A stretch of 64,000 nt of DNA from positions 1-64,000 of the forward strand of contig JAUCBJ010006769.1 of assembly GCA_032718475.1 (NCBI GenBank), read 5' to 3'. Position numbers and translations under genes: made by a program. The DNA is from Nemertoderma westbladi (taxonomy: Eukaryota > Animalia > Xenacoelomorpha). The notes under the pieces are model-generated. The model saw only the letters and a list, made by a program, of their open reading frames with translations, had not been told where the DNA came from and did no database searches. Below, one piece after another: positions 6,381 to 38,315 of this stretch. How positions within the stretch are numbered: the first letter of the stretch is position 1; the number at the start of each line of letters is the position of its first letter.

Positions 6381-6391
6381 TTTAAATTTAT

Positions 6392-7957
6392 CTAATAGTG
6401 TTTTGACATTAACTTCATCAAGTTCATTTTGTGTGTTGGATAAAACTGTATACTGTCCAAGGAATATGCTAAATGCATTTGGTCATAAGCAACAAAAGCA
6501 TAAACAGGATCTTCAGCATATGGCCATCTTAGCTTACCATCATTGCCAAATACTGCATATCGCAACTGGTGAGCTAGTGCTTGCTTGTGAACATTGATTC
6601 CAGCAAATTTCACATTTCCATCATCATCTTCCCTATACATAATACATGTTAATGAACGCTGGCCATCAGAATGTAAATCTGGAAATTGCTCCTCCAGTTT
6701 CCAATGAAAAGATGACAACTTTCCGTCCCACATATTCCTGAGATTTATCTTAATCGGGGAACCTACCAACTCACTCTCCATAGCCTGTCGGACACTCGTC
6801 TGCAAATAACCACCTAAACTTTCATTAAGTCGATACATGCTATGCTGTGAAGCGTCTGACTGGGCATACATATCATCTTGGACTGCTCTAACTGCTGCTG
6901 GGGCAACATCAATAGTATTCACGATGTCATCTGTACACTGAACACTCAGTGTTTCTAATAAATCATGATTAATGGTGAATATATCTTTGTATCCTTCTCT
7001 ATTGTTCAAGAGATGAGTTGTCCAGGATTTGACAACATCTGACCGCACTGGAAGTTTCCGAAAACTCGAGCCATCCATCCTTTCAGACATTATTAAAACA
7101 TCACATGAATGTTCGAGATGAGGTAAAACATGATTCAGTGTATTTCGAATTTTATGGCCAACAACTAAACAATGGCTTCCAAATACTTGTCTACGGTTAT
7201 AATTAAACATTATACTTGTAAATGCCTGTTGTTTTGCTATAAGGCAACGTTCAGCTGGTGTGCAAAGTGGAAGCTTCCCGACATTGGCTTGAAATGTTGC
7301 TGCTGGTTCAGTTGTACTTAGAGCAATATCCCTCACACTAGAAGTCTTCTTACTGCGTGCTCTCCTAGAATTAGCTTGGCACCGTTTACATTCTTTAAAT
7401 TTAGATGAGTCATAATTTAACTCTAGATATATTTCACAACAAGTTGTACAATGTTTTAATTTCCAACCAGTAGACCAGTCCTCAACAGCCTTTCTCATAA
7501 CGTATTGTACATATCGTGAATCTTGGGACCTTATTTTATCAACTTCCTTTTGCTCAGCATCATTCAAAAATTTAGTATGATCTCTGGGCCGCTGATCCCA
7601 AGGCCATAATGGAATTTGCATTTGGTTTGATTGTTGCTGTGCCTCAGGAAGAATAACATCCTCAAAAACGCCACATTCATTTTCATTCGGATCCACATTC
7701 TGAAGTTGAATATTTATTATTTCATCGTCTCGAGGTATTCCCCAATTGTTTAGAGAATTCTTTAATTTATTAACTTCACCCTCCAGTTTGCAGAAAAATT
7801 GGCACTTTTCTGAAAATTTCATTCTATCAGTCCAGGACGCAGGAGAAGGAATTAAGGAGGAACCAGCTATATTTTTCTTCTTCACTTTATCGGATACACT
7901 ACAATCAGATATAGAAGCGGACGCACTGGAGATGCCATCCTTTTGACATTGCACCAA
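6392..7957 (-). CDS. RepHel N-terminal region (Zn ribbon + DUF6570-like), frameshifted from the Rep ORF
   Basis: CTTC..CKRC, LPLCTPAERCLIAK, VRSDVVKSWTTHLLNNREGYKDI, EEQFPDLHSDG and YAEDPVYAFVAYD match motifs typical of the region preceding Rep in Helitron2/Helentron proteins. Confidence 0.8.
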   Translation of the reverse strand: MVQCQKDGISSASASISDCSVSDKVKKKNIAGSSLIPSPASWTDRMKFSEKCQFFCKLEGEVNKLKNSLNNWGIPRDDEIINIQLQNVDPNENECGVFEDVILPEAQQQSNQMQIPLWPWDQRPRDHTKFLNDAEQKEVDKIRSQDSRYVQYVMRKAVEDWSTGWKLKHCTTCCEIYLELNYDSSKFKECKRCQANSRRARSKKTSSVRDIALSTTEPAATFQANVGKLPLCTPAERCLIAKQQAFTSIMFNYNRRQVFGSHCLVVGHKIRNTLNHVLPHLEHSCDVLIMSERMDGSSFRKLPVRSDVVKSWTTHLLNNREGYKDIFTINHDLLETLSVQCTDDIVNTIDVAPAAVRAVQDDMYAQSDASQHSMYRLNESLGGYLQTSVRQAMESELVGSPIKINLRNMWDGKLSSFHWKLEEQFPDLHSDGQRSLTCIMYREDDDGNVKFAGINVHKQALAHQLRYAVFGNDGKLRWPYAEDPVYAFVAYDQMHLAYSLDSIQFYPTHKMNLMKLMSKHY

Positions 7958-7972
7958 TGGAGATGCGTTCGG

Positions 7973-9184
7973 TTATCTGAAACGTACACGTGCATAGTAA
8001 GCTTTAATTCGTTCAGCTGATCTCACCACAGGATCTAACCGCTTCTTACGCATAGATTCCCGGTTGGCTAAACGAACAGCAGGATCTAATCGTTTCGTAC
8101 GTTTTGATAATCGTTCAGCCGATCTAACTTCAGGATCTAACCGCTTTGTACGTTTTGATAATCGTTCAGCCGATCTAACTTCAGGATCTAACCGTTTCGT
8201 ACGTTTTGATAATCGTTCAGCCGATCTAACTTCAGGATCTAACCGTTTTGTATGTTTTGATAATCGTTCAGCCGATCTAACTTCAGGATCTAACCGTTTC
8301 GTATGTTTTGATAATCGTTCAGCCAATCTAACTTCAGGATCCAACCGTTGCGTACGTTTTGATAATCGTTCAGAAGATCTAACTTCAGCATCTAACCGTT
8401 TCTTCCGCATAGATTCCCGGTTGGCTAAACGAACAGCAGGATCTAATCGTTTCGTACGTTTTGATAATCGTTCAGCCGATCTAACTTCAGGATCTAACCG
8501 CTTTGTACGTTTTGATAATCGTTCAGCCGATCTAACTTCAGGATCTAACCGTTTTGTATGTTTTGATAATCGTTCAGCCGATCTAACTTCAGGATCTAAC
8601 CGTTTCGTATGTTTTGATAATCGTTCAGCCGATCTAACTTCAGGATCTAACCGTTTCGTATGTTTTGATAATCGTTCAGCCAATCTAACTTCAGGATCCA
8701 ACCGTTGCGTACGTTTTGATAATCGTTCAGAAGATCTAACTTCAGGATCTAACCGTTTCTTCCGCATAGATTCCCGGTTGGCTAAACGAACAGCAGGATC
8801 TAATCGTTTCGTACGTTTTGATAATCGTTCAGCCGATCTAACTTCAGGATCTAACCGCTTTGTACGTTTTGATAATCGTTCAGCCGATCTAACTTCAGGA
8901 TCTAACCGCTTTGTACGTTTTGATAATCGTTCAGCCGATCTAACTTCAGGATCTAACCGCTTTGTACGTTTTGATAATCGTTCAGCCGATCTAACTTCAG
9001 GATCTAACCGTTTCGTACTTTTTGATAAACGCTCAGTAGATTTCACAGCAGGATCGAATCGCCTTTTTTGCATTTTCTCACGAGCTTCAATACGTAAGGA
9101 ATGAATTTTGCATAACTTGGAGCGCACTTGATGGGTTTTAAGTCCACGTCCCGAATTAAACGGCCGTTGGCAAGTATCACACAT
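7973..9184 (-). CDS. RepHel extreme N-terminus: C2H2-like zinc finger plus basic 17-aa helical repeats
   Basis: CDTCQRPFNSGRGLKTH followed by about 20 RLDPEVRSAERLSKRTK units. A TTTTGTTTTAG acceptor-like site at ~9189 suggests an upstream exon. Confidence 0.7.
   Translation of the reverse strand: MCDTCQRPFNSGRGLKTHQVRSKLCKIHSLRIEAREKMQKRRFDPAVKSTERLSKSTKRLDPEVRSAERLSKRTKRLDPEVRSAERLSKRTKRLDPEVRSAERLSKRTKRLDPEVRSAERLSKRTKRLDPAVRLANRESMRKKRLDPEVRSSERLSKRTQRLDPEVRLAERLSKHTKRLDPEVRSAERLSKHTKRLDPEVRSAERLSKHTKRLDPEVRSAERLSKRTKRLDPEVRSAERLSKRTKRLDPAVRLANRESMRKKRLDAEVRSSERLSKRTQRLDPEVRLAERLSKHTKRLDPEVRSAERLSKHTKRLDPEVRSAERLSKRTKRLDPEVRSAERLSKRTKRLDPEVRSAERLSKRTKRLDPAVRLANRESMRKKRLDPVVRSAERIKAYYARVRFR
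8005..9065. repeat. Coding 51-bp tandem repeat with 357-bp (7-unit) higher-order structure
   Basis: AGGATCTAA recurs every 51 bp; the variant unit TTGGCTAAACGAACAGC occurs at 8064, 8421 and 8778. Confidence 0.95.
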
Positions 9185-9644
9185 AAATCTAAAACAAAAT
9201 AAAAATAAATAATAATAGTATATGAATTATGAAGCAGTGATAGGTGACTGCAATTGAACTGTTACACCATGCCCTGGAATATAATGTCTTAATTAAATTC
9301 GATATAGATAGGACTCACTTCTTACTTATAAAATAATTAATCGCGCATTATTTAGGCCTATTACATTTTAATACAATTTACTACACCCTTAAGATTTATT
9401 ATAATTTATATATTTTATGCGATTTGTGCTTAATATAGTATGTATTATATGAACCTTGATGGTTTGAATAAAATAAAATAATAATAATAATTCAGTAGTT
9501 TGGTCCCCCCACCCAAAATAAAAATATTTCTACAAATCGTAATGAGATTGCATGAAATTTAAAACAGAGATAGTTACATCTCCGAGCTCCGACCACTTAC
9601 TGGGTGAGCCAGAATTTTTATTTTTGCTTTCATTCTTTAGCTAC

Positions 9645-13370: not shown

Positions 13371-13468
13371 ATAATAACTAATAATCACGAACCCCATCCT
13401 CTTATAATATATAACTCTGTAGTAGTCAGTAGTAGTAGTAGTAATAGTAGTAGTAATAGTAGTAGTAG

Positions 13469-15569
13469 TGTTACGGTATATGGCGCTGTATCCATATTAT
13501 TAGTCATCATGCAGTATGCAATATTAGTCCGTTATACTGTACGTAATATTAGTCCGTTGTGCAGCATAATATTTTAGATAAGGCATAATGACGCAATGAT
13601 ATTTAGATAGGGAAATCGGAACGCCCATATATTTGCATCCATTTATTTTGTATAGTATGTAGCCCTACCTACGTAATTTTGTATTAGGTTATATGTAGAT
13701 AGTTCCAGGGTAAGTTTATTCGGACCCTGGATTCCGTGCTTGCTGATATTAGCTTTAGTAGGGCTAGCATATAGGGACGCCGTCCTGGCCATTCAGTAGC
13801 CAGAGACGTGAACCATTACCATATATGGTAATAATTTGAGCAATAGGGCTACAATCCGGCCTCCTTATTGGATTAACTGCTTCCAGGTTGGTCTAATGCT
13901 AGCATGGACTGGAGAGCCAATAGGAGAGCGATTGAGTCACCCTATTGCATCATCCCACCCGGATCACCTATAAATTGGCGGTGTGCCGGTAGAGCCTGTT
14001 ATCAATCTCTCACTCACATGACACATTCTCACTGCTGTTGAGCTGTCTCTAATTTTGTATTAGGATATCGTACTTTCTGCAATTTGCTAATTTGATTTTT
14101 TTCGTGAAATGATTTGCTAGTGCGATTACTTGCTTGTGTTTCTCAATAATTCCTTCGATTACTGCTAATTACAATTGAACTATGATTTCTACTCTTTGAT
14201 TAATGGTTCTATGTGATTCTTTTCTGCGCAATAATCCTAAGGGATTTCTGAGACTGTCAGACTTTGTGATTTGCATGCGCCGCTACGGTAGCTATTAGCA
14301 TAATGGAGGGCTAAGGTGCCAGTGGGCGATGGGCTCATCGGGGGGTTAGCGACGAAGGGAGTGCGGAGGATTCAAAAGCGGGCAACGCTGGCGGGGGTCA
14401 ACGTTGTGGTCGGGCAGTTTGGACTGTGGGTTGGAGACCGCTCGCCGGTACAGTAATTAGGGGGCTGATGATCCAAGGTTTTGTCTCTATTTAGTATTAG
14501 GGGGCAGGAATTGGGTTAGTTAGGAAGCCTAGATGTACCCGGGAGGGGCCTGCATACCTTACAGTAAGTAAGTAAGGGGGTAAGTACGTAAGTAAGTTGC
14601 GAATTATATAATTGCAGATTGTATAATTGCAAGTCGTGCTATTGTGATCCGTGATTGCTGACTCTGATTGATGTGTTACTAAAGTGTGCCTAAGATTACG
14701 AATGCTTAGATAGGCGCTCTTTTCCCTTTGATTGATTTCTATCTCTTAGTTTACTGTAAATAATTACTGATTAGGTCAAAGTAATACAGTATTTTAGGCT
14801 GTTACATATTTGTGACTGTAATTAATTAGTAAAATTAAGAATTAGTACGCAGCATAGCGGAGAGTAGCTAAGGTAATAATTAGAGTACCGTAAACTATTC
14901 ACGCTGAGCGGTTATTTGAATTAGCGGGCAATAAACTAGATCGCAATAGTTAGTACGCAAGACACTAGTAAGTTGCTGGCCTAAAGCCAGCTGCAGGCAA
15001 GTTTAGACCCAGAGCGGTAACACCTACGAAAGACATTGTACTGTATCATTTTGATTATTTTAAATATTCTCGCATTCACACATTCCGTTAGGGAACCCTC
15101 AGTATTCGCGATTAGAAAAGACGTAAGCATTGGCGTATTTCAGTAGTAAAATTAGGCGTAAGAATATACTCTGAGTGCAAAGCCCCTCGCACTCGTCTTA
15201 AGTAAGCTTAGGGAGCCGACTCGGGTTTATTGTTTTGGTTATTCCCGCGTGGCTCATAGATTCGAACAGTTAGCTCTCTATCGAGCGATCGGTAGAGAAA
15301 GGAACAAGCGATTTTGCAGGAGCTGTGTAAATTTAGTAAAATATATTAGCGGACGGCAGATTAGCGCCATCCAACGGTAAGTAGCGGTTTTGTATTTAGC
15401 AACCCTTACAATTTAGTAATAGCACACTCCTGATCCCCTTTACTTAACAGTAGAGCAGTCTTTGTGTCTTATTGGTTAGGCGAGAGCTCATTAGGTTGGC
15501 AGAGAGGTATACGGGTATTTGTCTGTTCAACAGTTCTGCTGTTAGTATAGGTGTCGCGGTTGTTTAACA
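13469..15569 (+). repeat. 5' LTR of element A
   Basis: Direct repeat of 27895-29995. Only two mismatches seen by eye (13644/28070 and 14329/28755). Confidence 0.98.
13860..14010 (+). promoter_or_regulatory. Putative LTR Pol II promoter (CCAAT boxes + TATA)
   Basis: ATTGG ~13867, AGCCAATAGG ~13915, CCTATAAA ~13967. The LTR of B has the same layout (CCAATAAG twice at 51083/51143, TATATAAAG ~51010, minus). Confidence 0.5.
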
Positions 15570-16812
15570 GTAAGGTATGTGTTATTGTCTGCTGTAGGCC
15601 TACCGCGTACAGTAGGACATAGAGTATATTCTTAGGCCGTGAAGATTTAGATTTACTGATACTTCGTAACAGTAAGGTATGTATTTTGTTTTTCTGTACT
15701 GCGTACAGTAAAGTAAGATTAAGATTACTGTATTAGGCACTGTACTGCGTACAGTAAGACATTAAGTATATTCTTTTAGGCTGATAGTTTAGATTACTGT
15801 ATTCACTGGCTGCGTACGATAGTACAGTAGTACATTAGGCTGATTGCTGTTACTGCGTACGGTAGAAGGACATTTGTTTGCCGTACCACACACACAGTAT
15901 CATTAGGCTGTTAGGTTGGTGTACTGTTTTACTTACTGTACTGCGTACAGTGGATGTACGATAGTGCGTTTTTGCTAATTGCGAATACAGCAGTTCCTTG
16001 GGCTTTAGGGCGAATTGTAATTAGTAAGTTTTTTGAAATTTTAGCTAGGTTTGCGAGAATTCAGTTTCGGTCAAAATTATTTTGTAAAATTCTAGAGTTT
16101 TGTACCGGTATGTTAGGTAACCGTTTAGTTATTTTATACCATCTGGAGATACATGGCAAGACGGAACTTCTGAGTTTGGGGTTCGTGTGGGTCTGCGGGT
16201 TCGGTTTGCAATCAGCGAAGGGACTGAATCTTTGGACGCGGACGTGGAATCTCACAGCAAACAAGGTTAGTTGTTCTGTTGGCACCACTGTGTTTGTGGA
16301 AGCAGTAAAAAATTACCGGTTGTTTAACTGCGAAGCTGAACTCAATTTATTAGTTAGGATATTTAGGTTTAGCCGGCCATGGTTTTTTGAATCGCTCAAG
16401 TTAGAGAGAGAGTTAGAGAGAGTCGCAACCCGAAGATGTAGCCACGCGCTAGTGGATACATATAATATTTGAAACTAAAATTACGTTGATTAGAGCTATA
16501 TATATATAAAATTAGAAATATTCAGGTGGCAAGTATATTTTGAATATTTTGTATTAGATTCAGAGTTATTTTGTGCTATACCGGTATTTAATATTATATA
16601 GTAGCTATATAATAATATTTTTGTTTAAATATTGTGCTAGTATTTGCTATAACTATATACCCCATTAAATTCACAATATTGCATTGCGAATTTATTTGAC
16701 ATTTGGACCAACTGATTATTTGACAAATAATTTGACCGTATTTCGGTTAAATTATAATTATATCTCGAACTTTTGCGAGATATTTTGCCGGAAGGCAAAC
16801 ATTATTTAGACT

Positions 16813-19800
16813 ATGAGTGTCTCAGACAAGGAGGCACTAGAGGACAGCTATGAGACGGCGGCTGGACCGCCGACTGACGATAGCGTAAACATTACTGTTG
16901 ATGACAATGCCGACTATGACGACGCAGCGAGCGACGCTGACGTAAGTGAACAGGAGGACGAGACAGTGACTAGTGAGGAAGAACAACAACCTCAAGTAAT
17001 AGTATTAGGATCCCCTACCGCTACTGTAAGAAAGGACTGCACAGCAGCCCGGACAGAGGTGAGTGATAGGGAGGGTAGTGTAGCAGAAGCGAGAGCCCGG
17101 AGCCCGGTTTCCAGACCTGTGGGTATGGTAAGTGCCGTGGTCCCAACGGCTGTTAGGAGTACCCGTAGTTCCCGAAATAATCCTTCAAGTCCACCGAGTG
17201 TGAGTCAGGTAAGCGAGAGAGAACTTGATATCGCGATAAAGAAGAAACTTCGCGCGCACGCCGGACATATAACTCGGACGACGGACAAGGTAAGGAAGAT
17301 GTTAGCCGACTCAGCGAACATCGGACGGGAAGGGTTAGTAGAGATTAGAAGAGGATATAACTCAGCGTTATTCAAGCAGACGGAGGAGCTTGCAGTCCTA
17401 GCGAAGAAGGCAGTAGAGTCTCAGTCGAGCGACGTGGCGACGAGGATTTACGACAGGGTTTTAGCAGCCTTGTTGGAGCACCGCGAGTTATCGGAGCGAT
17501 TCCGACGAGTTAGGACGGAGAACTGGCTGCTATGGGCATCACAAACGCAGGCGACTCAGGTGAGTGACGCAGATTTAAGAGACTTAGTGGAGCGGGAAGA
17601 GATCCAAGATAAGGAAGAGCGCCGGTATCAAAGGGAAGTTACTAGCTGGCTGATGCAGAATGGAGTGGTGGTGCCGGGCCAGGTGCTACCGACGACGGAG
17701 AACATCCAACAGAGGACGTTGACTCCACCCGACGATGCATCCAGAGACAGCGGCGATTCCCAGGTTAGTCACGCGCGAGGGAAGGTTATATGTGCTAGAT
17801 CCCTTGTTTCTCACAACTCGGCGGAGGAGAGAAGACGCCGACTAGACGAACAGCAGGCGGAAGTTTTGCGTGCACAGGAAGCACGGAAGGAAGCCGAGCG
17901 GGAACGGGAGCGCACACGTAAGTTAGACGCAAAGTTGCGAGAGTTGGAAGAAAAAGGTAAGCGTGAGCAAGCGGAACGCGAACAGGAAGAACGCGAACTT
18001 CAACTTCAACGCGAACAGGAAGAACGCGAACTTCAACTCCAACGCGAACGCGAAGAACGCGAACTCCAACTCCAACGCGAACGCGAAGAACGTGAACTTC
18101 AACTTCAACGCGAACGCGAACGGGAAGCTAAGGAATGCGAGCAAAGAAGACGCGAACTCCAACTCGAACGCGAGCGCAAGGAGCGCGAACTTGAGCGCGA
18201 GAGGGAGCGACGGGCGTTGTATGAAGAGAAGGCGCGTGTGGAAGAAGAGGGCGCAGCGAGACGAGCGAGGGAAGAAGAAGAACGTAAACTGGCGCAGTTG
18301 GAAAGTGCGAGATTAAGTTTAGAGAGCGAAGAACGGACTAGGAAGGCGAACGAAATCGCCGAGAAGGGGATGCGAATGATCGAAGAATGTGGGGCGAGTG
18401 TAGGGACAGAGTTGCGAGAACTGTTCGCACTGCAGAAGGCCGAACAGGAAGCGAGAACTCCGACCATACGCGAGTCGACGACGACCAGAATTCCTATACC
18501 CGGTCCAGCTATTACGAGTACACGGATCGCTAAACCGTTCTCTACATATCGCACGCCGGTTGGTATTGGTGCTTCACCCATCGCTCAGGATCCACGTCAT
18601 CGGAACACCGCACCACTATACACCGAACGCGAGAACGAAGAGTTTAGAGAAACTCCGACGGGCCAAGTATTTGGCGAACCGAACCCGCGGGTTTGGATTA
18701 CGCAGACGGAGCGCCGACCCAGTTCGACGGAGAACTTCCGGGTTAAACCGGAAGAGGGATCATATGAGAGACAGCGGATTACTCAGATAGAGCCGACTAT
18801 ACAACAGAACCCTAGCCAGGAATTTATTACGAGGGATGAGTTAAGTGCTAGTTTAGCGCAAGCTATATCGCCACACATCCAACCTATAACGGACATGCTT
18901 AGCAACCTACGGTTAAAGGAAGCAGCCCAGGTAAGAAGTAATTCAAATCCTAGCAGGCCTGAGTTAGATAAAGTCCAGCCTAGTCAACGAGTACGCATAT
19001 CGGAGGAAACTATACCACATAGACCTCAGGTAAGGACGCCTGTCCCGAATATTCATAATCCCAATTTCGAAAATTCGGCCGAGAAATTTATTCAGGATGC
19101 TTGGGTCAGGGCCTCGGCGCGCAAACCATCGCGAGCGCTAAGGACTGACACCGAGTCAAGCGATGAAGAGGAAGACATGAGACGTCAGAAGTCCCGAAAC
19201 TATAAGGAAAGAAGGACCGACGCGGAGCAGGTAAGTTGGAACCACCGGGAAAGGACCAGACTTAACAACCCTGCGGAACTAAACCATTTGTTAACCCGGA
19301 ACGACGCAACCCTTAGAGACATAGGTAAGTTTGCTGCTAGGCAAGGACTGCCGACGCAACAACCCCAGAAGTTTATGGGTAACCATAAGCATTGGAGGAC
19401 CTTCAAAACCTATGTCGACGAGCAGCTAACCAACAGCACCTTTACTCCCAACGAGAAGTTCAACTATTTGCTTCAGATGCTCCATCGAGAACCTAGAGCC
19501 ATTGCTGATAACTTCGTCGGCAATGAGAGGGCATTTGAGCTAGCGATGAAGACACTTAGTGACATCTACGGGAATAAAACCAAGATGGCGCAGTCGATAG
19601 TAGAAGACTTGGGTAAGGGCGGAAGGATTACAACTCCGTTAGAGCTGTTGAACTTAGCGAACGCTATTTCGAACGCATTGGACATCTTGAGGACGGTAAA
19701 TCTACCTCATCATGGTGATCACGCCGAAGTTTTAAAGAGCGTAATAAGACGTCTAAACATGCGTTACCGACAGAAATGGCGCAAATTAGAGAATAAGTTG

Positions 19801-22800
19801 GAGGGCCAAGGTAAAGTATTGACACTTCAGCATATTCATGACATGATAGCCACAGACGCAGTAGCAGAGATGAAATCAAACTTCTCAGAAGAGAATATGA
19901 GAGAGTCTAAACCTGTTACCGGTAAGTCTATGGTAAGTTTTGACGACGACAGGACCACTGTGACATTTAACTCAGTAGACAGATATAATTCGAGTACCCC
20001 AGCCTTTAGATCAGACTCGCGAGTATGGTCAGGTGAGCGGTTAGATAGACCTAGGTTAAAGCAACAGGAGTTGCCGGATGGATTTGCAGGTTGCCAATAC
20101 TGCTTACTAAAGGAGGTAAGATCTGACGACCATAAGTTAGATAGTTGCAGACGGTTCAAAGAATTAAATTCGGAACAGAGAAGAGTTCAAGTGCGGACGT
20201 TGGACACCTGTTGGGCATGTCTTGCGCCAGGTCATGTACGGCGGCAGTGCCCGAACAGCAAGGACGGATGCATGGAATGCGGCAGACTACATCACAAGTT
20301 GCTACATGCGGATTTCCACACCCCAACGGACCGTTACTTACAGCGAAATCCTCACAGGAAGGGGAGCAAAGAACCCGTATCGATAAGGAGGAATACGTAC
20401 ACTGGCATCCAGGACGATGGTTACCAACCAGGTTCGTCGGACGAGGATGGCGAGTCGAGCGCGAGAGAAGTGACCTGCCAAGGTTTCACCGCGGATAGTT
20501 CATCGACCAGCGCGCGGACGTATTTATCATCGGCCACGTCGGAAATATTTAGCGTGATTCCGGTGAAACTCACTGGCGATAAGGGATCGAAGCGAATATA
20601 TGTGATGTTGGACACTGCGTCCACATTATCCTATATCGACGAGGAAGTGGCGAGAGCCGTTTCTAGCTTCCAGGACGCCGAGGAGATCCAAATAGAGTTG
20701 AAGTCTATGCATGGGGTAGGAGACCTCAATGGACACAGAATTTCGGTGGAACTAGATTCCCTACTTCCGAGAGACCAACACACTCGACAAGAATGGAAAG
20801 CTTTGCCATTGGACGGATTTAAGTGTCTAGCTATGAAGGGATTCGGCAGGCAGTTAGGTAAGGTGCCGCCGATGAGTCCCATAGCACAGGAGTATTTTGA
20901 CAAGCTCAGGATACCCAGACACCAGGTAGGTTATAGGAATGTTTCTATGTTGATTGGTGCAGAACAGCTGATCGCACACCAAATATGGGAAACGAGACCA
21001 GCTGAGCCGCATGTCAATGGACCACATGCCCATAGGACTATACTAGGTTGGTATACAAGAGTACCCATGTCTTATGAGTTTACAGGTGGCGACAAGCCAA
21101 CAAACAGATACGACGAATTACAGCCTATAATTCAACCACCGTTAGTAGAACCACCAGACATAGACGAGTTTAGGAGAACCTGTATTGACCACTATAGTGA
21201 CTTTAGCGAGTCGGACGAGGAGTTGATTCCCGATAATGTTAGGTTGTCGGAACCACTTCATAATGACCGGACAGATAGTGAACCCGAGGACTACTGTTAT
21301 CAGACCCGTGGGTCTGGTTCAACGGTCCACGCTACCTATTTGACTAACGTTTTGACTTATACAGACATAGTGGAGGGTCAAGTGGCTAAATATCGAGACC
21401 TAGACATTTTCCAATACAGTGAGGAGGAATTACAGAAGGAATTGATACGCCAGGACCTCGAGACAGGAGCCAGAACCGTCGAATGGCTGGATAGGGACGC
21501 AATGGAACCCGGTGGATATGACCTAGCCATGTCTACTGATGAGAAACGGTCGCTGGAGATGATGGAAGACACCATACGTCTGCTACCGACTGGACATTTT
21601 GAAGTTGGAATGTTGTGGCGTCGACAACCACCTAAGTTGGAGAACAACTACAGCTTAGCCTTGAAAAGATTAAACGGAGTAAGGGCTCGGTTGTTGAAGA
21701 ATCCGGACATTAGGGAGAAGTATTGCGCCCAGATCAACAACTATTTCGCCAAGGGATTTGCTGGGAAGGTAGAGGACCCTGACTTAGTGACAGACCAGAC
21801 TTATTACCTTCCACACCACTATGTGACTCACCCTGACAAGCCAGACAAAGTCCGAGTAGTCAACGACTGCGCAGCAGTCTATAGAGGTATGTCCCTGAAT
21901 TCAGAGTTGATGGATGGTCCCAACCTGAACAATTATTTGATAGGAATACTGTTGCGTTTTAGACAGCGGCGATTCGCATTTACTTGTGACATCGAGGCGA
22001 TGTTCCACCAGGTAAGAGCCTGTAAGGCAGACCAGGATAGCCTTCGATTTCTCTGGTTTGAGAATGAAGACTTATCCGGCCCAGTGGTTACATACCAAAT
22101 GTACGTTAGGATATTTGGCGCCCGCGATAGTCCAAATGGCACGCTGTTTGTTCTAAAGAAAACGGCAACAGCCCAGATTGGTAAGTATCCAGTAGAAGTA
22201 ATCGAGTCCATCTTGAGAAACTTCTATATGGACGACGGATTGGTGTCCAAGGACACGGCGGAACAAGCCATAGAAGTGGCTCACGGCCTGCAAGAGTGCT
22301 TGGCTACAGGGGGTTTTCCTCTGACCAAGTTCACTACGAACTCGGAGGCCCTATTAGAGTCGTTCCCGGTAAAAGATCGCGGGAGCGGAGACATAGAATT
22401 GGGGGTAGAACCAATCCCCATGGCGCGAGTACTGGGACTCGCTTGGAACCCGAACTCAGATAAGTTCCAGGTAAGAGTTAGATTTGAGCCCAGTAGCCCA
22501 GACAAAGTTTTGACAAAGAGAATTTGCTTATCGACTTTAAGTAGACTATTTGACCCGATGAACTTTATCAGTCCGGTTATATTACAGGCACGAGCGTGCA
22601 TGAGGAAAATTTGGTTGTCCGACGTAGAGTGGGACGAACCAATATCTCCTATACATGCAAAGCAGTGGAGGGAGTGGGAAGCCGAGTTGCATCTATTGAA
22701 AAACATAGATGTACCCCGTTCCTACTTTCCGAATCAGCTGGTATTTCCAACTGATTTAGAGCTGCACCTATTTAGTGACGCAAGTGACACCGGCTTTGGT

Positions 22801-25200
22801 ATGGTAGCCTACCTTCGCCGAGAGGTAAGTCAGGACAAATTTGAGACGGCCTTTGTGACTTCTAGATCAAAGACAATGCCGGTCAAATACATGACTGTCC
22901 CTCGTGCAGAGTTACAGGCGGCTGTAGTTTCGGTCGAGGTAAGTAAGCAAATAACTGAGGAGTTAGACACGACATTGACCTTATTCTATTGGACGGACGC
23001 ATCCTTGGTGTTAGTATACATTGCGGCCGACAATATTGCACTAAAGACATTTGTGGCCAACAGACGCGCTCAGATCGTTGACTTTTCGACGAAGGAACAA
23101 TGGAGACATTGTCCGGGAGTGTTAAACCCGGCCGACATAACTTCGAGAGGTGCAATGCCGGCGGAATTCTGTCAGGAAGAGTCGCAGGAGTTTTGGTTGC
23201 ATGGACCTGATTTTCTAACGAGGACGCAGGAACATTGGCCAGAGCGACTAAAGATTGTGACCAATCCGATGCCTGAAGATGCAGAAGTCAAAGTGGAGAA
23301 AGTCTCTAAGTCAAAGTCTAAAGCCAAACTTAAGTCATTGGAGCGGCCTGAAGAGTCATTGGAGCGGCCTGAAGAGTCATTGGAGCGGCCCGGAGACCTG
23401 TCAGACCAACAGACTTACGTGACTACTAGGTCCGGAAGGGTAAGTTATGACATCAAACCACCCTTACAGACTAAACCGGAGTCACAATTGGTAAGTGACG
23501 GACAGAAAATGACCGACACAATGGAGTCTTTGGTTTCCAAACCTGCGGGTTTGGATTCGAAACTTCCATTAGTTAGCGGACAACCGTCGCTGGCATTAGA
23601 GCCATGTAGTATTTATGACAAATTACTAAATTCGTCTGCCTCTTGGCTGACAATTTGTAAAAGAACTGCGTGGTTAAGCCGATACATTTTGTACCTTTGT
23701 TTAAAACATTCGAAACATTTGAGAGAACCATTGAGCACCAATAGTGAGCGAATTCGGAAATTGAAACAACCTCTGACAGAGGATGAGATTGATCAAGCGG
23801 AATTAAAGCATTTGAAACATTATCAAATGTGTGCCTTCCCTAAAGAATTCCATCTATTATCGGCTCAACGACCAGTTCTCTATAAACCCCTTAGAAAATG
23901 GAGTCCATTAATCCATAAGGGTTTAATTTGTCATAGATCGAGAATCCAGACTGTCGACATAAACTCACAGTTTCGGTTCCCAGTGATAATCCCTAGTCAC
24001 CCAATAGAATTGCAAAGAGCGATTCTATGGGATATACACAAGAGGTTGCATCACGCGGGAAAGTTACACTGTTTGTCGGCAGCGAGACAGCGATTCATTC
24101 TATTGCAGCCAAGCAGGGCAGTCGGCACTATGTACGACGCCTGTCTGGTTTGCAAGAGGGTGAACGCCAGAGTATTGGAACAGGAGATGGCTGAACTCCC
24201 GGAAGCGAGAGTGCAGGCATATAACCCACCCTTTACGAACACAGGGGTGGATTGTTTTGGTCCGATTGAAGCAAAGAGTGGACGGCTGACCCATAAGCGA
24301 TGGGGTCTGCTACTGACATGCATGGCTAGTAGAGCCATACACATCGAGCGTGTGGCAGACATGTCGACCAAATCTCTGCTCCTGGCCTTGAAGAGATTTA
24401 TGGCCAGGAGAGGACTAGTAAAGGCGTTCTACTCTGACAAGGGTACAAACTTTGTCGGAGGGAATAGCGAGTTGAACGCGGCTCATAAAGCAGCACAGAA
24501 TAAGGAAATTTCTGCAGCACTTTTGCCGCAACGAGTAGAATGGAGATTTAATACTCCAGAAAGTCCTTGGAGAGGAGGAAGTTGGGAGCGTTTAGTTCGC
24601 TCTGTAAAGCAGGCCATTGCCAAAACATTGCCTGTAAACAAACAACTTACCGACGACGAACTGGTCACAGCTTTCATTGAAATCGAGCATACCCTAAACT
24701 CGAGGCCGATAGCTATGTTGCCAGACGGTGTTGCATTAACGCCGAATCATTTGCTAATGCAGAGTCCAGCATTTCTTGTGCCGGCATCAGAACCCATTAG
24801 TGCCGACCTATATAGTCGTAAAAGCTGGAAAGTAACACAGTTTGTGGCGTACACATTCTGGGAATATTGGCGGGAATACTATCTTCCCACCATATCCACC
24901 AGAACAAAGTGGTACAAAACGGTTCGGAGTCTCCAAAGGGGAGATTACGTATTGATAACCGAACCTATTGTCAAGAGAAAGTATTGGGAGACGGGAGTGA
25001 TCTTGCACACACACCCAGACGTGCAAAACATAGTGCGCACAGTCACTGTGAAAATTAGGTGCAAGTGTCCGCACCCAAAAAAGTGTAAAACTAATGGTTT
25101 ACACACCTTGGACCGACCGGTCCAAGATATCGTGTTATTAGAGGAGACACGTATCGAGACGGGAGATTATAGTTTGTCTCCTGCCTCAAAACAGAATTAG
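16813..25200 (+). CDS. BEL/Pao gag-pol polyprotein (Gag with triple Zn knuckle, aspartic protease, RT, RNase H, integrase)
   Basis: CWACLAPGHVRRQC and CMECGRLHHKLLH; MLDTAS; YLPHH...DIEAMFHQV...FYMDD; FSDAS; NPADITSRG; HHAG..CLVC; DCFGP, SDKGTNF, WERLV. Confidence 0.98.
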   Translation: MSVSDKEALEDSYETAAGPPTDDSVNITVDDNADYDDAASDADVSEQEDETVTSEEEQQPQVIVLGSPTATVRKDCTAARTEVSDREGSVAEARARSPVSRPVGMVSAVVPTAVRSTRSSRNNPSSPPSVSQVSERELDIAIKKKLRAHAGHITRTTDKVRKMLADSANIGREGLVEIRRGYNSALFKQTEELAVLAKKAVESQSSDVATRIYDRVLAALLEHRELSERFRRVRTENWLLWASQTQATQVSDADLRDLVEREEIQDKEERRYQREVTSWLMQNGVVVPGQVLPTTENIQQRTLTPPDDASRDSGDSQVSHARGKVICARSLVSHNSAEERRRRLDEQQAEVLRAQEARKEAERERERTRKLDAKLRELEEKGKREQAEREQEERELQLQREQEERELQLQREREERELQLQREREERELQLQREREREAKECEQRRRELQLERERKERELERERERRALYEEKARVEEEGAARRAREEEERKLAQLESARLSLESEERTRKANEIAEKGMRMIEECGASVGTELRELFALQKAEQEARTPTIRESTTTRIPIPGPAITSTRIAKPFSTYRTPVGIGASPIAQDPRHRNTAPLYTERENEEFRETPTGQVFGEPNPRVWITQTERRPSSTENFRVKPEEGSYERQRITQIEPTIQQNPSQEFITRDELSASLAQAISPHIQPITDMLSNLRLKEAAQVRSNSNPSRPELDKVQPSQRVRISEETIPHRPQVRTPVPNIHNPNFENSAEKFIQDAWVRASARKPSRALRTDTESSDEEEDMRRQKSRNYKERRTDAEQVSWNHRERTRLNNPAELNHLLTRNDATLRDIGKFAARQGLPTQQPQKFMGNHKHWRTFKTYVDEQLTNSTFTPNEKFNYLLQMLHREPRAIADNFVGNERAFELAMKTLSDIYGNKTKMAQSIVEDLGKGGRITTPLELLNLANAISNALDILRTVNLPHHGDHAEVLKSVIRRLNMRYRQKWRKLENKLEGQGKVLTLQHIHDMIATDAVAEMKSNFSEENMRESKPVTGKSMVSFDDDRTTVTFNSVDRYNSSTPAFRSDSRVWSGERLDRPRLKQQELPDGFAGCQYCLLKEVRSDDHKLDSCRRFKELNSEQRRVQVRTLDTCWACLAPGHVRRQCPNSKDGCMECGRLHHKLLHADFHTPTDRYLQRNPHRKGSKEPVSIRRNTYTGIQDDGYQPGSSDEDGESSAREVTCQGFTADSSSTSARTYLSSATSEIFSVIPVKLTGDKGSKRIYVMLDTASTLSYIDEEVARAVSSFQDAEEIQIELKSMHGVGDLNGHRISVELDSLLPRDQHTRQEWKALPLDGFKCLAMKGFGRQLGKVPPMSPIAQEYFDKLRIPRHQVGYRNVSMLIGAEQLIAHQIWETRPAEPHVNGPHAHRTILGWYTRVPMSYEFTGGDKPTNRYDELQPIIQPPLVEPPDIDEFRRTCIDHYSDFSESDEELIPDNVRLSEPLHNDRTDSEPEDYCYQTRGSGSTVHATYLTNVLTYTDIVEGQVAKYRDLDIFQYSEEELQKELIRQDLETGARTVEWLDRDAMEPGGYDLAMSTDEKRSLEMMEDTIRLLPTGHFEVGMLWRRQPPKLENNYSLALKRLNGVRARLLKNPDIREKYCAQINNYFAKGFAGKVEDPDLVTDQTYYLPHHYVTHPDKPDKVRVVNDCAAVYRGMSLNSELMDGPNLNNYLIGILLRFRQRRFAFTCDIEAMFHQVRACKADQDSLRFLWFENEDLSGPVVTYQMYVRIFGARDSPNGTLFVLKKTATAQIGKYPVEVIESILRNFYMDDGLVSKDTAEQAIEVAHGLQECLATGGFPLTKFTTNSEALLESFPVKDRGSGDIELGVEPIPMARVLGLAWNPNSDKFQVRVRFEPSSPDKVLTKRICLSTLSRLFDPMNFISPVILQARACMRKIWLSDVEWDEPISPIHAKQWREWEAELHLLKNIDVPRSYFPNQLVFPTDLELHLFSDASDTGFGMVAYLRREVSQDKFETAFVTSRSKTMPVKYMTVPRAELQAAVVSVEVSKQITEELDTTLTLFYWTDASLVLVYIAADNIALKTFVANRRAQIVDFSTKEQWRHCPGVLNPADITSRGAMPAEFCQEESQEFWLHGPDFLTRTQEHWPERLKIVTNPMPEDAEVKVEKVSKSKSKAKLKSLERPEESLERPEESLERPGDLSDQQTYVTTRSGRVSYDIKPPLQTKPESQLVSDGQKMTDTMESLVSKPAGLDSKLPLVSGQPSLALEPCSIYDKLLNSSASWLTICKRTAWLSRYILYLCLKHSKHLREPLSTNSERIRKLKQPLTEDEIDQAELKHLKHYQMCAFPKEFHLLSAQRPVLYKPLRKWSPLIHKGLICHRSRIQTVDINSQFRFPVIIPSHPIELQRAILWDIHKRLHHAGKLHCLSAARQRFILLQPSRAVGTMYDACLVCKRVNARVLEQEMAELPEARVQAYNPPFTNTGVDCFGPIEAKSGRLTHKRWGLLLTCMASRAIHIERVADMSTKSLLLALKRFMARRGLVKAFYSDKGTNFVGGNSELNAAHKAAQNKEISAALLPQRVEWRFNTPESPWRGGSWERLVRSVKQAIAKTLPVNKQLTDDELVTAFIEIEHTLNSRPIAMLPDGVALTPNHLLMQSPAFLVPASEPISADLYSRKSWKVTQFVAYTFWEYWREYYLPTISTRTKWYKTVRSLQRGDYVLITEPIVKRKYWETGVILHTHPDVQNIVRTVTVKIRCKCPHPKKCKTNGLHTLDRPVQDIVLLEETRIETGDYSLSPASKQN

Positions 25201-25939
25201 TGTTGGACGCAACTCACTTCGTATGCATTCCTCGTATGCAAATACAAGGAAATGCATAGGAGCGGGGTTGTGGTGATTTGCGTTGAGTTTTGTCTGGTGG
25301 GTATCAAAACAAAATTTTATTTTCAAAATTTTTGGAAAATTAGAAAATTTTAAAAATTAGAAGTGAACCCAAGACAATTCCAGACGCTGTGTATAGACGC
25401 GTTTTAGAATTCGTCTATAGATAAACAGTAATTTGAAAAGTCGTGAAGCCTGGAAAATAGCATTTAGAAACCATGGTGACGGCTATATTACGTAGGAGTG
25501 TAAATTGAGTTTAGCAACTTCCACAGATTGGTGCCAACAGTGCAACTAAGGTGCTAAAGGTTAGTAGCACCAGAGGCGTACATGGACCCCACTCAGTAGT
25601 TTGCAGGATGTGTGATGTTCGATTATCAAACCTGTGGGTTTGGTATAGTCGAGTATTGTGGCTATAGTCCTTTCTAACTACTGTAGTTTAGTAACGAGTA
25701 ATGGGAGTAGTTTGGGCATCAAAAAGTGAGTTGGTCACGGCCAGTTTATCTCCAAACTTTTTGCGCTATGCATGGGAATAGGTTAGAGAATAGTTAGTTA
25801 GGAAGAGACGGGATCTAGAGAGTCGAACCTGAACTGCTGGAAGGCGGGGGGGTTCGGGAGGTCTGTCCTTCGGCGACATCTAACTGATTACCCACAGTGT
25901 AATTGGTTTGCGTAACGGAACACTTATTGGGATATATAT

Positions 25940-27024
25940 GTATATACGCGGGGCGTAATAGAGAAGGATATTAGAGCGCAACCGCGCAGGGGATTTACTG
26001 CCAGAGAGGAGGCGGAGTTACCATTCGCGCGACCGGGATGTAAAGATTCGAACGTTTACTACCATGGGCGGTCGGTGATGGAGCTAAATGGGAAATACAA
26101 ACCCACGATTCCCGACCGACTAGACGAGCAACATCCAGAACCGATATTAACGCGTTGTCAAGCTCACCAGTTCCTTAGATATAACGAGGGAGGTTACCCG
26201 ATGAGCGACCCGATGATCAGTATCGACTTCGGCGAAAGCGACCTCCGAGACCCATTACGCCGACCGTTACGACTTTAGATCCGTATACAGAGATTAAACC
26301 TGTTCGACACCCGCTTTGATAGACACGGCGGCGGCCATTTCGCTATACCGAGCCTATAAAGACCTAGAGGCGCGGCGCGAAGCGGTACGGGACTCGAGTT
26401 CCTGGACCACGTTCACTTCGCTTCACCAGGAGAGGAAGGTCACGCCTGAGTATCCAGGCGAGATTCGCGCCGTCCATCCGTCTACTAACTATACCCACGA
26501 TCCGCGGTTTATACGATATTTACTCCAAATTATTTCGGGAAGTTTCGACGAACGCATTATTAAGCCCGAATATGTCCAATCCTTTATATATCATCGTCGC
26601 TCTGATATATACGTCTAGATTTATTACCCAGCGCACAATTGGCGGCCTAAGGAGACTCGTTTGGGGTCATTGACCTCTGAACGAGTGGAGGATCAGGACC
26701 GCCGCGCCCACAGCGACAACAGCCGGAGCTCACAGCTCGCGGCAAGTACCAGAAGGAGGAGTCCTTGGCAAGCGTCAAGCCAAGGACGAGCAGTTCTATT
26801 CGACGGTTGAAGAAAAGGAGTTGGCGGAGGCGCCCACAGGGACACGGCAAATGGGACGAGGCCGAGGGAGGAGCACCAGTCAGGAGATAGTCGGTGCCCA
26901 GGGAACGTCGTCGCCGGTTCCGGGAAGTGACGCCTCAAGGACGCCGTCAACAGAGTCTACAGGGGGTAGACTGGTGTATCTGGAGAAGGGAGCGAGCCCG
27001 AGAGACCCAGGAGCTAGCCGATGA
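25940..27024 (+). pseudogene. Decayed accessory ORF of element A, homologous to 52230-54544
   Basis: Homologous blocks PRRGFTAREEAELPF, PEPILTRCQAHQFLRYNEGGYPMSDP, SLYRAYK, HDPRFIRYLLQI and GRGRGRST, split by stops and frameshifts. ATA lies where B has ATG. Confidence 0.8.
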
Positions 27025-27887
27025 GACTATAATATCACGGAGCGACAAACTCTAGACATATACATCATCGTCGCTCTGATGTATATCGTAGGTTTTGATC
27101 AATCATTCGACTGGACTCATATACACTAGTCGTATCCATATTTTAGAATTTTATTTTCGAAGGCCGAAAAATATTGAAAGGAAATACTTTATTTTGTAGT
27201 CCGATTGGAAATAGTAAATACTTTAACTATATTTGATTTTGTGTATATGACTTTATTTGCTCTAAAGTTTATTGAAAGAGGCAAAGGAAGTGATTGGGGA
27301 GACAAACCCGCGGGTTTGGCTTACTCCTATCACTTACCTGAGCAATCATCAAACCAAGATGATTTGCGCTTTTATAAGAAATTAAGTAAAGTCCGAAAAT
27401 GAAAGAAATTATTACGTATTTTATATTTAGTTTGATTATCGGCCTTTAATGCAATTTAGTTAAAAATTTAGCCTCAAATACGTTTATATTTAGTTTATCT
27501 TGTTAATGTTGATCGTTAATTTGAGATGGGAAATGGGGGACATTGTCCTAGCCATGTTCCATTTCAATAGGTAGACAGTCAATTTGTAAATAAATAAAGG
27601 AAGTAATATTTTTGTAATTTAATTTTGTATGTAGTAATCATTATGTAGAACGAATGAGAAACAGTATTTTGTAAATTTAATTTGTATGTAATAATCGTTA
27701 ACAGTGAGAGAGATAATATTTTGTAATTTTAATTTGTATGTAAATTCATTATGCAATATCTATGGCAATATTTGTAAATAGTAGAATTATTATGTTATTT
27801 AGATTGGTTGGAAGAAATTTATTTTGTTTTGTATACATCACCTTATACTCTTCTACAATTGGAGGGAAACATTGTATGATTTCCCTT

Positions 27888-27894
27888 GGAGCGG
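27888..27894 (+). other. Plus-strand priming tract (GGAGCGG) of element A
   Basis: Directly abuts the 3' LTR TG. The same heptamer abuts the LTR of B (51421-51427). Confidence 0.7.
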
Positions 27895-29995
27895 TGTTAC
27901 GGTATATGGCGCTGTATCCATATTATTAGTCATCATGCAGTATGCAATATTAGTCCGTTATACTGTACGTAATATTAGTCCGTTGTGCAGCATAATATTT
28001 TAGATAAGGCATAATGACGCAATGATATTTAGATAGGGAAATCGGAACGCCCATATATTTGCATCCATTCATTTTGTATAGTATGTAGCCCTACCTACGT
28101 AATTTTGTATTAGGTTATATGTAGATAGTTCCAGGGTAAGTTTATTCGGACCCTGGATTCCGTGCTTGCTGATATTAGCTTTAGTAGGGCTAGCATATAG
28201 GGACGCCGTCCTGGCCATTCAGTAGCCAGAGACGTGAACCATTACCATATATGGTAATAATTTGAGCAATAGGGCTACAATCCGGCCTCCTTATTGGATT
28301 AACTGCTTCCAGGTTGGTCTAATGCTAGCATGGACTGGAGAGCCAATAGGAGAGCGATTGAGTCACCCTATTGCATCATCCCACCCGGATCACCTATAAA
28401 TTGGCGGTGTGCCGGTAGAGCCTGTTATCAATCTCTCACTCACATGACACATTCTCACTGCTGTTGAGCTGTCTCTAATTTTGTATTAGGATATCGTACT
28501 TTCTGCAATTTGCTAATTTGATTTTTTTCGTGAAATGATTTGCTAGTGCGATTACTTGCTTGTGTTTCTCAATAATTCCTTCGATTACTGCTAATTACAA
28601 TTGAACTATGATTTCTACTCTTTGATTAATGGTTCTATGTGATTCTTTTCTGCGCAATAATCCTAAGGGATTTCTGAGACTGTCAGACTTTGTGATTTGC
28701 ATGCGCCGCTACGGTAGCTATTAGCATAATGGAGGGCTAAGGTGCCAGTGGGCGGTGGGCTCATCGGGGGGTTAGCGACGAAGGGAGTGCGGAGGATTCA
28801 AAAGCGGGCAACGCTGGCGGGGGTCAACGTTGTGGTCGGGCAGTTTGGACTGTGGGTTGGAGACCGCTCGCCGGTACAGTAATTAGGGGGCTGATGATCC
28901 AAGGTTTTGTCTCTATTTAGTATTAGGGGGCAGGAATTGGGTTAGTTAGGAAGCCTAGATGTACCCGGGAGGGGCCTGCATACCTTACAGTAAGTAAGTA
29001 AGGGGGTAAGTACGTAAGTAAGTTGCGAATTATATAATTGCAGATTGTATAATTGCAAGTCGTGCTATTGTGATCCGTGATTGCTGACTCTGATTGATGT
29101 GTTACTAAAGTGTGCCTAAGATTACGAATGCTTAGATAGGCGCTCTTTTCCCTTTGATTGATTTCTATCTCTTAGTTTACTGTAAATAATTACTGATTAG
29201 GTCAAAGTAATACAGTATTTTAGGCTGTTACATATTTGTGACTGTAATTAATTAGTAAAATTAAGAATTAGTACGCAGCATAGCGGAGAGTAGCTAAGGT
29301 AATAATTAGAGTACCGTAAACTATTCACGCTGAGCGGTTATTTGAATTAGCGGGCAATAAACTAGATCGCAATAGTTAGTACGCAAGACACTAGTAAGTT
29401 GCTGGCCTAAAGCCAGCTGCAGGCAAGTTTAGACCCAGAGCGGTAACACCTACGAAAGACATTGTACTGTATCATTTTGATTATTTTAAATATTCTCGCA
29501 TTCACACATTCCGTTAGGGAACCCTCAGTATTCGCGATTAGAAAAGACGTAAGCATTGGCGTATTTCAGTAGTAAAATTAGGCGTAAGAATATACTCTGA
29601 GTGCAAAGCCCCTCGCACTCGTCTTAAGTAAGCTTAGGGAGCCGACTCGGGTTTATTGTTTTGGTTATTCCCGCGTGGCTCATAGATTCGAACAGTTAGC
29701 TCTCTATCGAGCGATCGGTAGAGAAAGGAACAAGCGATTTTGCAGGAGCTGTGTAAATTTAGTAAAATATATTAGCGGACGGCAGATTAGCGCCATCCAA
29801 CGGTAAGTAGCGGTTTTGTATTTAGCAACCCTTACAATTTAGTAATAGCACACTCCTGATCCCCTTTACTTAACAGTAGAGCAGTCTTTGTGTCTTATTG
29901 GTTAGGCGAGAGCTCATTAGGTTGGCAGAGAGGTATACGGGTATTTGTCTGTTCAACAGTTCTGCTGTTAGTATAGGTGTCGCGGTTGTTTAACA
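27895..29995 (+). repeat. 3' LTR of element A
   Basis: Direct repeat of the 5' LTR, followed by the TSD. Confidence 0.98.
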
Positions 29996-31019
29996 AGTAG
30001 TATAAGTAGTAAGTAATAGTAAAGGAGATCGGTTTAAACCAAAGTGATAAAGTAACATTATTATATAACATAATCATATAGACAAAGTAGAATAAGATAC
30101 AGATTCATAATTATTTTATCAAACTCATGTACTACTTACTTCAATGTGCCAATTGTAATAATAATTAAACATATTATTCCGATTAATCTGCGTTTGGCCC
30201 TATAAGATATTATACTGAAGTGTTTTATATCAATATATCCATGCGAGTAAACAAGAAGTGAAGTAAATGTTTATTATTATAGTTTTAGAAATTGAATGAT
30301 ATACCCAAGATAGTGAAATAGATAATATACAAGAAATTGCCATTTGATCAGATATATCAAAACGGCATCTTTAGTATAATACCGTAATAGTATCAATTAA
30401 CTCTGTTATACAATGTAAATATACTAAATCTATTTATAAATATATTATAAGCCCTACATTGTATATTTCTCCTACAGGTAGACAATGTAGATGTTAAAAC
30501 TTGATATAATTTGGTATAATGTATAACATATTACAAATAAGACTGAGGCAGCTAAACTATATTGCAAAGAAATCAAATATCCTAAAGTAATATACTAGAC
30601 CCTCCCTCCACCCTATAAATAGTGTTCACCACCTACCCCACCCACCGCCCTTATTACTTCATAATAATGAAAGATAGTACTGGCGCTCCGGTCACTCCGT
30701 TCCCTCCGCTGGGGGGGTTAAGTTGTAGGTTTTGACACTATGCAAAATCCGAGCACAGAGTTAGAAGCGCATTGGATAGGCGAACATTTCTTGCAGTGAA
30801 AGTATTTCCATACCTATTATAGTTTTCAAGAGAGTCAGACATGAGTAGCTAAAATTTAAATTTTTTCGGTAAAGTCTGATTTCACCGGTACCTGTCATCC
30901 GAAATATGGATTGTGATATATAGTTAAATGCGGGTCCACTAACTGTACATTCACATTTTTTCAAGAAAAAAATTCGATCAAGGGTTTTCGAAATATTTTC
31001 GAATTACCGGAAGCAGACT

Positions 31020-37997: not shown

Positions 37998-38295
37998 CTT
38001 ATGACACCCTCTTGCGCCGGCTTTGTGACAGTTGGACCACACTGACACCATTGCGTATCGGATTGATTAATAAGGATAATCAATTAAACCCTAATTAGGA
38101 GTCGTAAGACACCTATTAGGGTTTAATTGTAGTAATTAATTGATGACACCTATCAATTAGGGTCTAATTAGCCTAATTAGAAGGTGTCACCAAGACATTC
38201 TGGCGCCAATGACACCCAATGACACCCATAGGTGTCATTGGGTGTCACCCAGACAGTCTGGCGCCAGTCAGTGGGGTCCATCTGTCACAAAGAGG
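37998..38295. mobile_element. Small foldback/MITE-like element rich in GACACC/GGTGTC; partial inverted copy at 49330-49500
   Basis: TTTGTGACAG..GGACC..ACTGAC (38022) pairs with GTCAGTGGGGTCCATCTGTCACAAA (38267); internal palindromes. Confidence 0.6.
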
Positions 38296-38315
38296 AGCAA
38301 GAACCTACTACTAAC

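Follow-up and report, generated by a model that had tools for sequence, protein, structure and literature searches.

The stretch analyzed here, which we call the window, is 64,000 nt of contig JAUCBJ010006769.1 from Nemertoderma westbladi (assembly GCA_032718475.1, positions 1 to 64,000 of the forward strand). It carries a long terminal repeat (LTR) retrotransposon, element A, and our subject is how this element starts its reverse transcription. Judged by its sequence, element A is a young BEL/Pao retrotransposon, with two LTR mismatches in 2,101 bp. It has TG..CA LTR ends and a target-site duplication, and its open reading frame (ORF) has the gag, protease, reverse transcriptase (RT), RNase H and integrase order of BEL/Pao, running from DUF1759 through a Cys-His knuckle, the protease, the RT (with YMDD), Peptidase_A17/RNase H and the integrase to DUF5641. 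The Pfam families in the ORF (DUF1759, Peptidase_A17, Integrase_H2C2 and DUF5641) are those of BEL/Pao and not of the Ty3/gypsy-type Pol found in the Tf1/sushi group. The closest proteins are 36–43% identical, and protein searches found nothing closer than 43%. These searches returned no reference sequence of a named BEL/Pao clade such as Suzu, Sinbad or Sailor. All of the RT relatives have PF05380, and corals, sea urchins, molluscs, tunicates, crustaceans and fish supply most of the named protein relatives. In the host the family is abundant: 25,107 contigs of run X1 match it.

The original prediction was that the sequence directly after the 5' LTR, where a primer should bind, is not of the TGG type and has a 10-nt complement (12 nt with G-U pairs) inside the LTR, and this is what we find. 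GTAAGGTATG directly follows the 5' LTR at 15570 and occurs a second and last time at 15672, and its complement CATACCTTAC occurs only at 14553 and 28979. The match at 14553-14562 gives a run of 10 Watson-Crick pairs, or 12 counting G-U. No TGG occurs in the 20 nt that follow the 5' LTR, and element A lacks the site that is the rule in BEL/Pao, 18 nt long and able to pair with a host tRNA at its 3' end. What it has is a primer-binding position complementary to its own LTR, as in the Tf1/sushi group. The duplicate at 15672, also foreseen, proved to be part of a 16-nt duplication (15565-15580 and 15667-15682) that includes the LTR-end-like TAACA. The predicted cluster of splice donors does begin one base past the complement, with GTAAGT hexamers at 14564, 14568, 14580, 14588 and 14592. 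The only TATAAA is 584 nt upstream of the primer site; we considered a Tf1-like transcript start at 14553, and there is no TATA box 30 nt upstream of that position. ARAGORN found no tRNA gene in the 64-kb window, and Rfam, run over 13400-28000, gave two matches, both at chance level.

Among 1500 random internal 20-mers, 5 have a complementary run of at least 10 nt that starts at their first base, as does 1 of 1500 shuffles, and none of the 1500 random 20-mers combines such a run with 12 nt counting G-U. The chance probability is 0.01 when offsets of 0–4 are allowed and 0.02 when predicted splice junctions are added. Taken alone, these figures put the complementarity in element A moderately beyond chance.

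Table 1. Positions of the parts of element A in the window.
Feature	Position	Strand	Remarks
Target-site duplication, left (AGTAG)	13464..13468	+	
5' LTR of BEL/Pao element A, 2,101 bp, TG..CA	13469..15569	+	2 mismatches against the 3' LTR
Sole TATAAA of the LTR, predicted promoter	13969..13974	+	probable transcription start near 14000
Candidate self-primer, complementary to post-LTR sequence	14551..14562	+	10 Watson-Crick pairs at 14553-14562, 12 pairs with G-U
(GTAA)n-like cluster of splice-donor hexamers	14564..14597	+	length-variable; can fold back on the primer site
Predicted intron	14564..14749	+	pyrimidine tract and TAG acceptor at 14747-14749
Sole AATAAA of the LTR, predicted poly(A) signal	14930..14935	+	3' of the primer site
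Primer-binding position, non-tRNA type	15570..15581	+	flush with the LTR end
Duplicate of LTR-end-like TAACA and primer-binding sequence	15667..15683	+	site proper from 15672
Single gag-pol ORF, 2,795 aa counted from ATG	16813..25200	+	domain searches
Short purine-rich tract (GGAGCGG) before the 3' LTR, likely plus-strand primer	27888..27894	+	motif also in element B
3' LTR, with second primer-site copy at 28979-28988	27895..29995	+	
Target-site duplication, right (AGTAG)	29996..30000	+	

Post-LTR sequences in relatives of element A

We used the RT alignment to fetch 79 metagenome loci related to element A. Twenty-four of them are distinct elements that we could call, with an RT about 31–42% identical to that of element A. 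The 55 loci left out comprise 4 duplicates (L014, L022, L023, L068), 47 without a readable LTR end and 4 (L002, L006, L017, L037) that have a non-TGG site but lack the needed part of the LTR. Scans of viral contigs and genome contigs gave no relative.

An ordinary TGG site is present in 4 of the 24 relatives (L004, L016, L039, L044). In 17 others, which we call junction-type, the post-LTR sequence pairs only with the spliced junction of a predicted intron in the LTR. This pairing is 11–15 nt long, is the exact complement of the exon-exon junction and begins 0–4 nt past the LTR end. The junction is made up of 4–10 nt before the donor and 4–7 nt after an acceptor that lies 75–192 nt downstream, inside the LTR. 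The donor is GTAAGT in 12 of the 17, and from these splice signals we predict that the introns are spliced. The remaining 3 relatives (L018, L033, L078) are contiguous-type, with an 11-nt complement unbroken in the LTR. Where a spliced product is the only match to the sequence at the primer position, this suggests that the partner is an RNA.

The post-LTR sequences of these 20 non-TGG relatives vary among families yet track each element's own LTR. This is the covariation that the original prediction had proposed looking for, and it supports the central idea of tRNA-independent priming by an LTR-derived RNA. The LTR end is fixed independently by a repeat in only 7 of the 20; all 7 have a complement of 11–15 nt in their own LTR, with P no higher than 0.004 for each (3000 random 24-mers). 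None of 3 TGG controls has such a complement in its own LTR. Cross-pairings reached 11 nt in 3 of 240 cases, and 2 of these 3 were between two relatives with a near-identical site. For the other 13 relatives the LTR end was taken from a CA or TA dinucleotide, which makes the evidence from them partly circular. The blind scan also gave chance matches away from LTR ends, and we accepted its matches by eye according to their position after a CA or TA end and upstream of gag. L003 and L021 fell outside the donor and acceptor filters of the first junction search and were found by later scans.

Of 21 elements, element A included, 16 have a paired stretch with AC at its end, 4 one with AT and 1 one with CT. 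A poly(A) hexamer (AATAAA or ATTAAA) lies between the site and the LTR end in 14 of 19 relatives and in 3 of 19 control segments, and the only AATAAA of element A (14930) is also placed there. Element A thus shares with the junction group a site 0–4 nt from the LTR end, the AC or AT ending and the placement of the poly(A) signal. It does not share the complement that exists only across an intron junction, as its best junction pairing is 6–7 nt and its contiguous pairing 10 nt. L021, with a 168-nt intron, and L018, which has no intron and the same 3' seven letters, are sisters with support 100, so contiguous forms like that of element A occur inside the junction group. L078 has the acceptor in its 5' copy and the contiguous site in its 3' copy (the donor is outside the sequence).

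We also noted by eye that L001 (5-18) and L009 (about 4055-4066) have a partial second copy of the primer-binding sequence in U5, like the duplicate in element A. The LTRs of L012, L013 and L033 end in TA and not CA.

Proposed self-priming and its alternatives

The scheme that we propose starts from what is demonstrated, namely that the complementarity exists and is family-specific, that intron signals are present, and where the poly(A) signal lies. We put at about two in three the probability that a piece of element A's LTR transcript, an RNA cut at or near 14562, serves as its primer for reverse transcription. Our confidence in self-priming is higher for the junction-type relatives than for element A. 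The transcript would start near 14000, judging from the sole TATAAA at 13969, and 14551-14562 would pair with 15570-15581, either in cis or with the second packaged RNA. A cut at the 3' end of the duplex, at or near 14562, would provide the primer 3' end, and by analogy with Tf1 it would probably be made by the element's own RNase H. Starting at the LTR end, the RT would synthesize strong-stop DNA as far back as the cut, and this DNA would jump to the 3' copy of R, which still holds the upstream part. Because the poly(A) signal is 3' of the cut, the 3' R copy would restore the lost 5' part. In most families that copy would also keep the unspliced intron, and the intron would survive because the copy is usually left unspliced; where it is spliced, intron-less LTRs would result, such as those of L018, L033 and, on this reading, element A. 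Plus-strand copying of the primer, as in general LTR replication, would keep both sequences matched during family divergence. Because this insertion has its LTR end at the first of the two sites, priming took place at 15570 and not at 15672.

We think that element A probably represents the intron-less version of a primer that is widespread in splice-assembled form. The best GT-AG junction in its LTR has at most 7 exact pairs with the boundary site, and with no junction above 7 pairs we class it as contiguous-type. For the group as a whole we favor, somewhat less firmly than self-priming in element A, a history in which a large animal BEL/Pao branch dropped tRNA priming and the spliceosome assembles the primer from two LTR exons. 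Repeated intron loss would then give contiguous forms like element A, where a second, downstream intron may unmask the primer rather than build it.

Several observations count against self-priming in element A. Between the primer site and the LTR end lie 1,007 nt, compared to 51–365 nt in the relatives. One of 15 foreign post-LTR sequences (L078) also has a 10-nt complement in the long LTR of element A, so the window alone is only moderate evidence. In our quick trees, element A is a long branch, and its position relative to L007/L032, to the 16-row starred clade and to the TGG elements has a support of only 38, which leaves its place between junction-type and TGG-type elements weakly supported. 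In RNA folding, done with a model that has no means of representing loop-loop pairs or chaperoning by proteins, the site is predicted to pair with the boundary copy at a probability of 0.000. The boundary copy is predicted to be in a stem with the neighboring leader, and forcing the boundary pairing costs 12.7–16.3 kcal/mol, where the largest cost among the relatives is 8.1. The site is predicted to pair instead with the duplicate at 15672, with a probability of 0.32 in the unspliced construct from 14004 and 0.99 in three other constructs. The model also fails for L018, L021 and L072, with element A as the worst case. For the relatives the folding speaks in favor of the scheme: 7 of 12 leaders have a helix probability of at least 0.45 when spliced, and all 12 have 0.00 when unspliced.

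Among sibling copies in the host, no substitution of 2% or more is listed for 14527-14575 in four runs, and this invariance is weak evidence because most of the 381 bases examined are also invariant. Other host contigs align upstream and then break off at 14551-14554, the start of the site, which indicates that sibling subfamilies differ there. One X1 contig (depth 68) has a single post-LTR site bearing three transitions, and another, with a depth of 68.4, breaks off at 14551. This depth match is only suggestive, as it resembles covariation within the family of element A without demonstrating it. The duplicate site (15667..15683) is skipped in one X1 contig. Run X4, which we guess to be RNA, had no usable joint among the best 15 of 126 joints and the best 40 of 1137 substitutions.

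The alternative that survives best, although we consider it unlikely, is that the match in element A is due to chance or is a structural pairing (for packaging, dimer formation or translation control) apart from priming. The chance probability of about 0.01–0.02 with offsets and junctions, the foreign site in 1 of 15 that matches too, and the predicted folding of the site with the duplicate and not the boundary copy would all fit this. However, a recent insertion with an intact RT would then have no primer, and the geometry, the AC ending and the poly(A) placement agree with the relatives.

We give slightly less credence to priming by a host RNA, whether a CCA-trimmed tRNA, a tRNA half or another small RNA, with the LTR match being incidental. 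ICTV, the international virus taxonomy committee, gives tRNA priming for the family (PMC8742986), and priming by an internal part of a tRNA is described for Copia elements (FunCo1) in excerpts of PMC5445492. The 4 relatives with TGG sites are in keeping with it, and the tree position of element A is compatible with kinship to them. A host RNA would not explain why 20 different post-LTR sequences match their own LTR and almost never that of another element, and the first 20 nt after the LTR of element A are without a TGG.

It is also improbable, a little more so again, that a spliced junction primes element A as in the junction-type relatives, with donor 14588 joined to acceptor 14749/14750 and pairing to 15567-15578 by way of two G-U pairs. 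The exon after 14749 begins TTTAC, like L015 and L078, whose sites start GTAA, and this junction has a 12-nt exact match at 15704. But GT-AG junctions give no more than 7 exact pairs with the boundary site, and chance matches are inflated by the ACAGTAA-like words that recur in the leader. On the exon-2 side of the junction, 14752 and 14755-14757 vary among copies, up to about half of the depth, and there is no intron-less joint in the DNA contigs.

We find least plausible the splicing-released RNA of the original prediction, in which the 5' exon freed by the first splicing step at donor 14564 is the primer. A consensus donor from 14564 and a good acceptor ending at 14749 do exist, and in the longest construct intron removal is predicted to lift the site-duplicate pairing from 0.32 to 0.99, but the free exon would run one base beyond the paired stretch and end in an A-A mismatch. 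The donor cluster is also variable, differing among copies by 4-nt units, and loose ends behind 14563 continue without it in 2 of 4 runs (X2 and X3; 3 contigs each, mixed, with an agreement of about 0.6), so some sibling copies apparently lack it. None of the DNA contigs connects the two sides of 14564-14749. The 17 junction-type relatives have a paired stretch that reaches 4–7 nt into exon 2 and ends there, where splicing leaves no free end, and splicing in the wider group would seem to build the primer sequence rather than to release it.

Element B and other features of the window

A second element, B (63247-55211, minus strand), is a related BEL/Pao element whose Gag, protease and integrase match those of element A at 37–48%. 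It has no match to residues 1420-2212 of element A (RT and RNase H), the frame is open across this gap, and its gag is split by about 1 kb of extra DNA. From its sequence, element B is likely non-autonomous. Two extra ORFs on the minus strand, 54664-53597 and 53717-52230, encode 355 and 495 aa with no Pfam match, and the second has three motifs that look by eye like Cys-His knuckles. Element A has broken remnants homologous to the 355-aa ORF at 25916-26618 on the plus strand (tblastx E 1e-19).

In non-coding sequence 3' of pol, the two elements share a stretch of about 50 nt with 82% identity (25708-25756, plus strand, in A; 54801-54749, minus strand, in B). Their LTRs are otherwise unalignable, and this stretch is possibly a conserved RNA element. 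In both, AGGAGCGGG occurs shortly after pol and resembles their purine tracts. The leader of element A has several imperfect copies of the palindrome ACTGTAC-TGC-GTACAGT at 15690-15960, which are candidate packaging or dimer hairpins.

The 3' LTR of element B (51420-49313, minus strand) has at 49580-49562 a stretch ending in TTTAC and followed by AGTA, which resembles the primer site of element A and its flank. It is about 220 nt past a TATA-like box. The primer-binding position of element B lies beyond the window, and the part of its leader within the window has no copy of the predicted primer-binding site. Insertions seem to interrupt this LTR. Near 51300-51230 there is a tRNA-like or short interspersed nuclear element-like stretch, which ARAGORN did not call; what may be a solo LTR of 245 bp lies near 51066-50822; and the repeat at 49500-49313 recurs at 38129-38312. 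A Helitron-like element at 921-9226 (minus strand) has ORFs for a PIF1 helicase and for DUF6570, together with a coding tandem array of 51 bp.

Comparison with known systems

For Belpaoviridae, the ICTV describes an 18-nt site for tRNA-Arg or tRNA-Gly, LTRs of 0.2–1.2 kb and genomes of 4.2–10 kb (PMC8742986). Element A agrees with this family in its domain order, Pfam families, TG..CA LTRs, single ORF and purine tract, and it differs in having no tRNA site, LTRs of 2.1 kb and a span of 16.5 kb (PMC8742986). The fungal GalEa Copia elements, with their Conserved Hairpin Site, and the bivalve terminal-repeat retrotransposons in miniature also have no tRNA site after the LTR, and excerpts of PMC5445492 and PMC6934838 propose self-complementarity for them. 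As described in those excerpts, both arms are 3' of the LTR and 12–41 nt apart, with no complement in U5, whereas the partner in element A is inside the LTR. Term look-ups in the main texts of four surveys that cover BEL/Pao (PMC554778, PMC2774666, PMC3118150, PMC6238403) gave no occurrence of "PBS" (primer-binding site).

Our literature search, made at the level of abstracts with Repbase reports and subscription journals outside it, found no self-priming or junction priming in BEL/Pao, and a prior description is possible. Cer7 of C. elegans is reported to be a BEL element that carries its own tRNA-like primer, and the search found no paper on it. The primers of Cer7 and element A would both be encoded by the element, but element A has no tRNA-like sequence comparable to the insert in Cer7.

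If our reading is true, reverse transcription in LTR elements would have a different start in an internal and often splice-assembled primer. Such a primer would link retrotransposition to splicing by the host, and it would account for the persistence of an intron in an LTR that goes through an RNA stage. It would also explain why annotation based on tRNAs misses these primer sites, and self-primed elements could escape silencing by 3' tRNA fragments.

The closest likeness is to Tf1, Tf2 and Tj1 (Ty3/gypsy), which, according to excerpts of PMC7175516 and PMC4600332, have no tRNA site, have about 11 nt of their own LTR RNA complementary to the primer-binding position, and require a cut to make the primer 3' end. 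In Tf1 this cut falls between bases 11 and 12 (excerpt of PMC7175516). Tf1 belongs to another superfamily, and in the same excerpted accounts its primer is the first 11 nt of the transcript, whereas the primer of element A is predicted to be about 550 nt inside the transcript and that of 17 relatives to be assembled across an intron. Element A likely works like Tf1 in priming itself but stands outside the Tf1 group, as a BEL/Pao element that departs from the tRNA rule.
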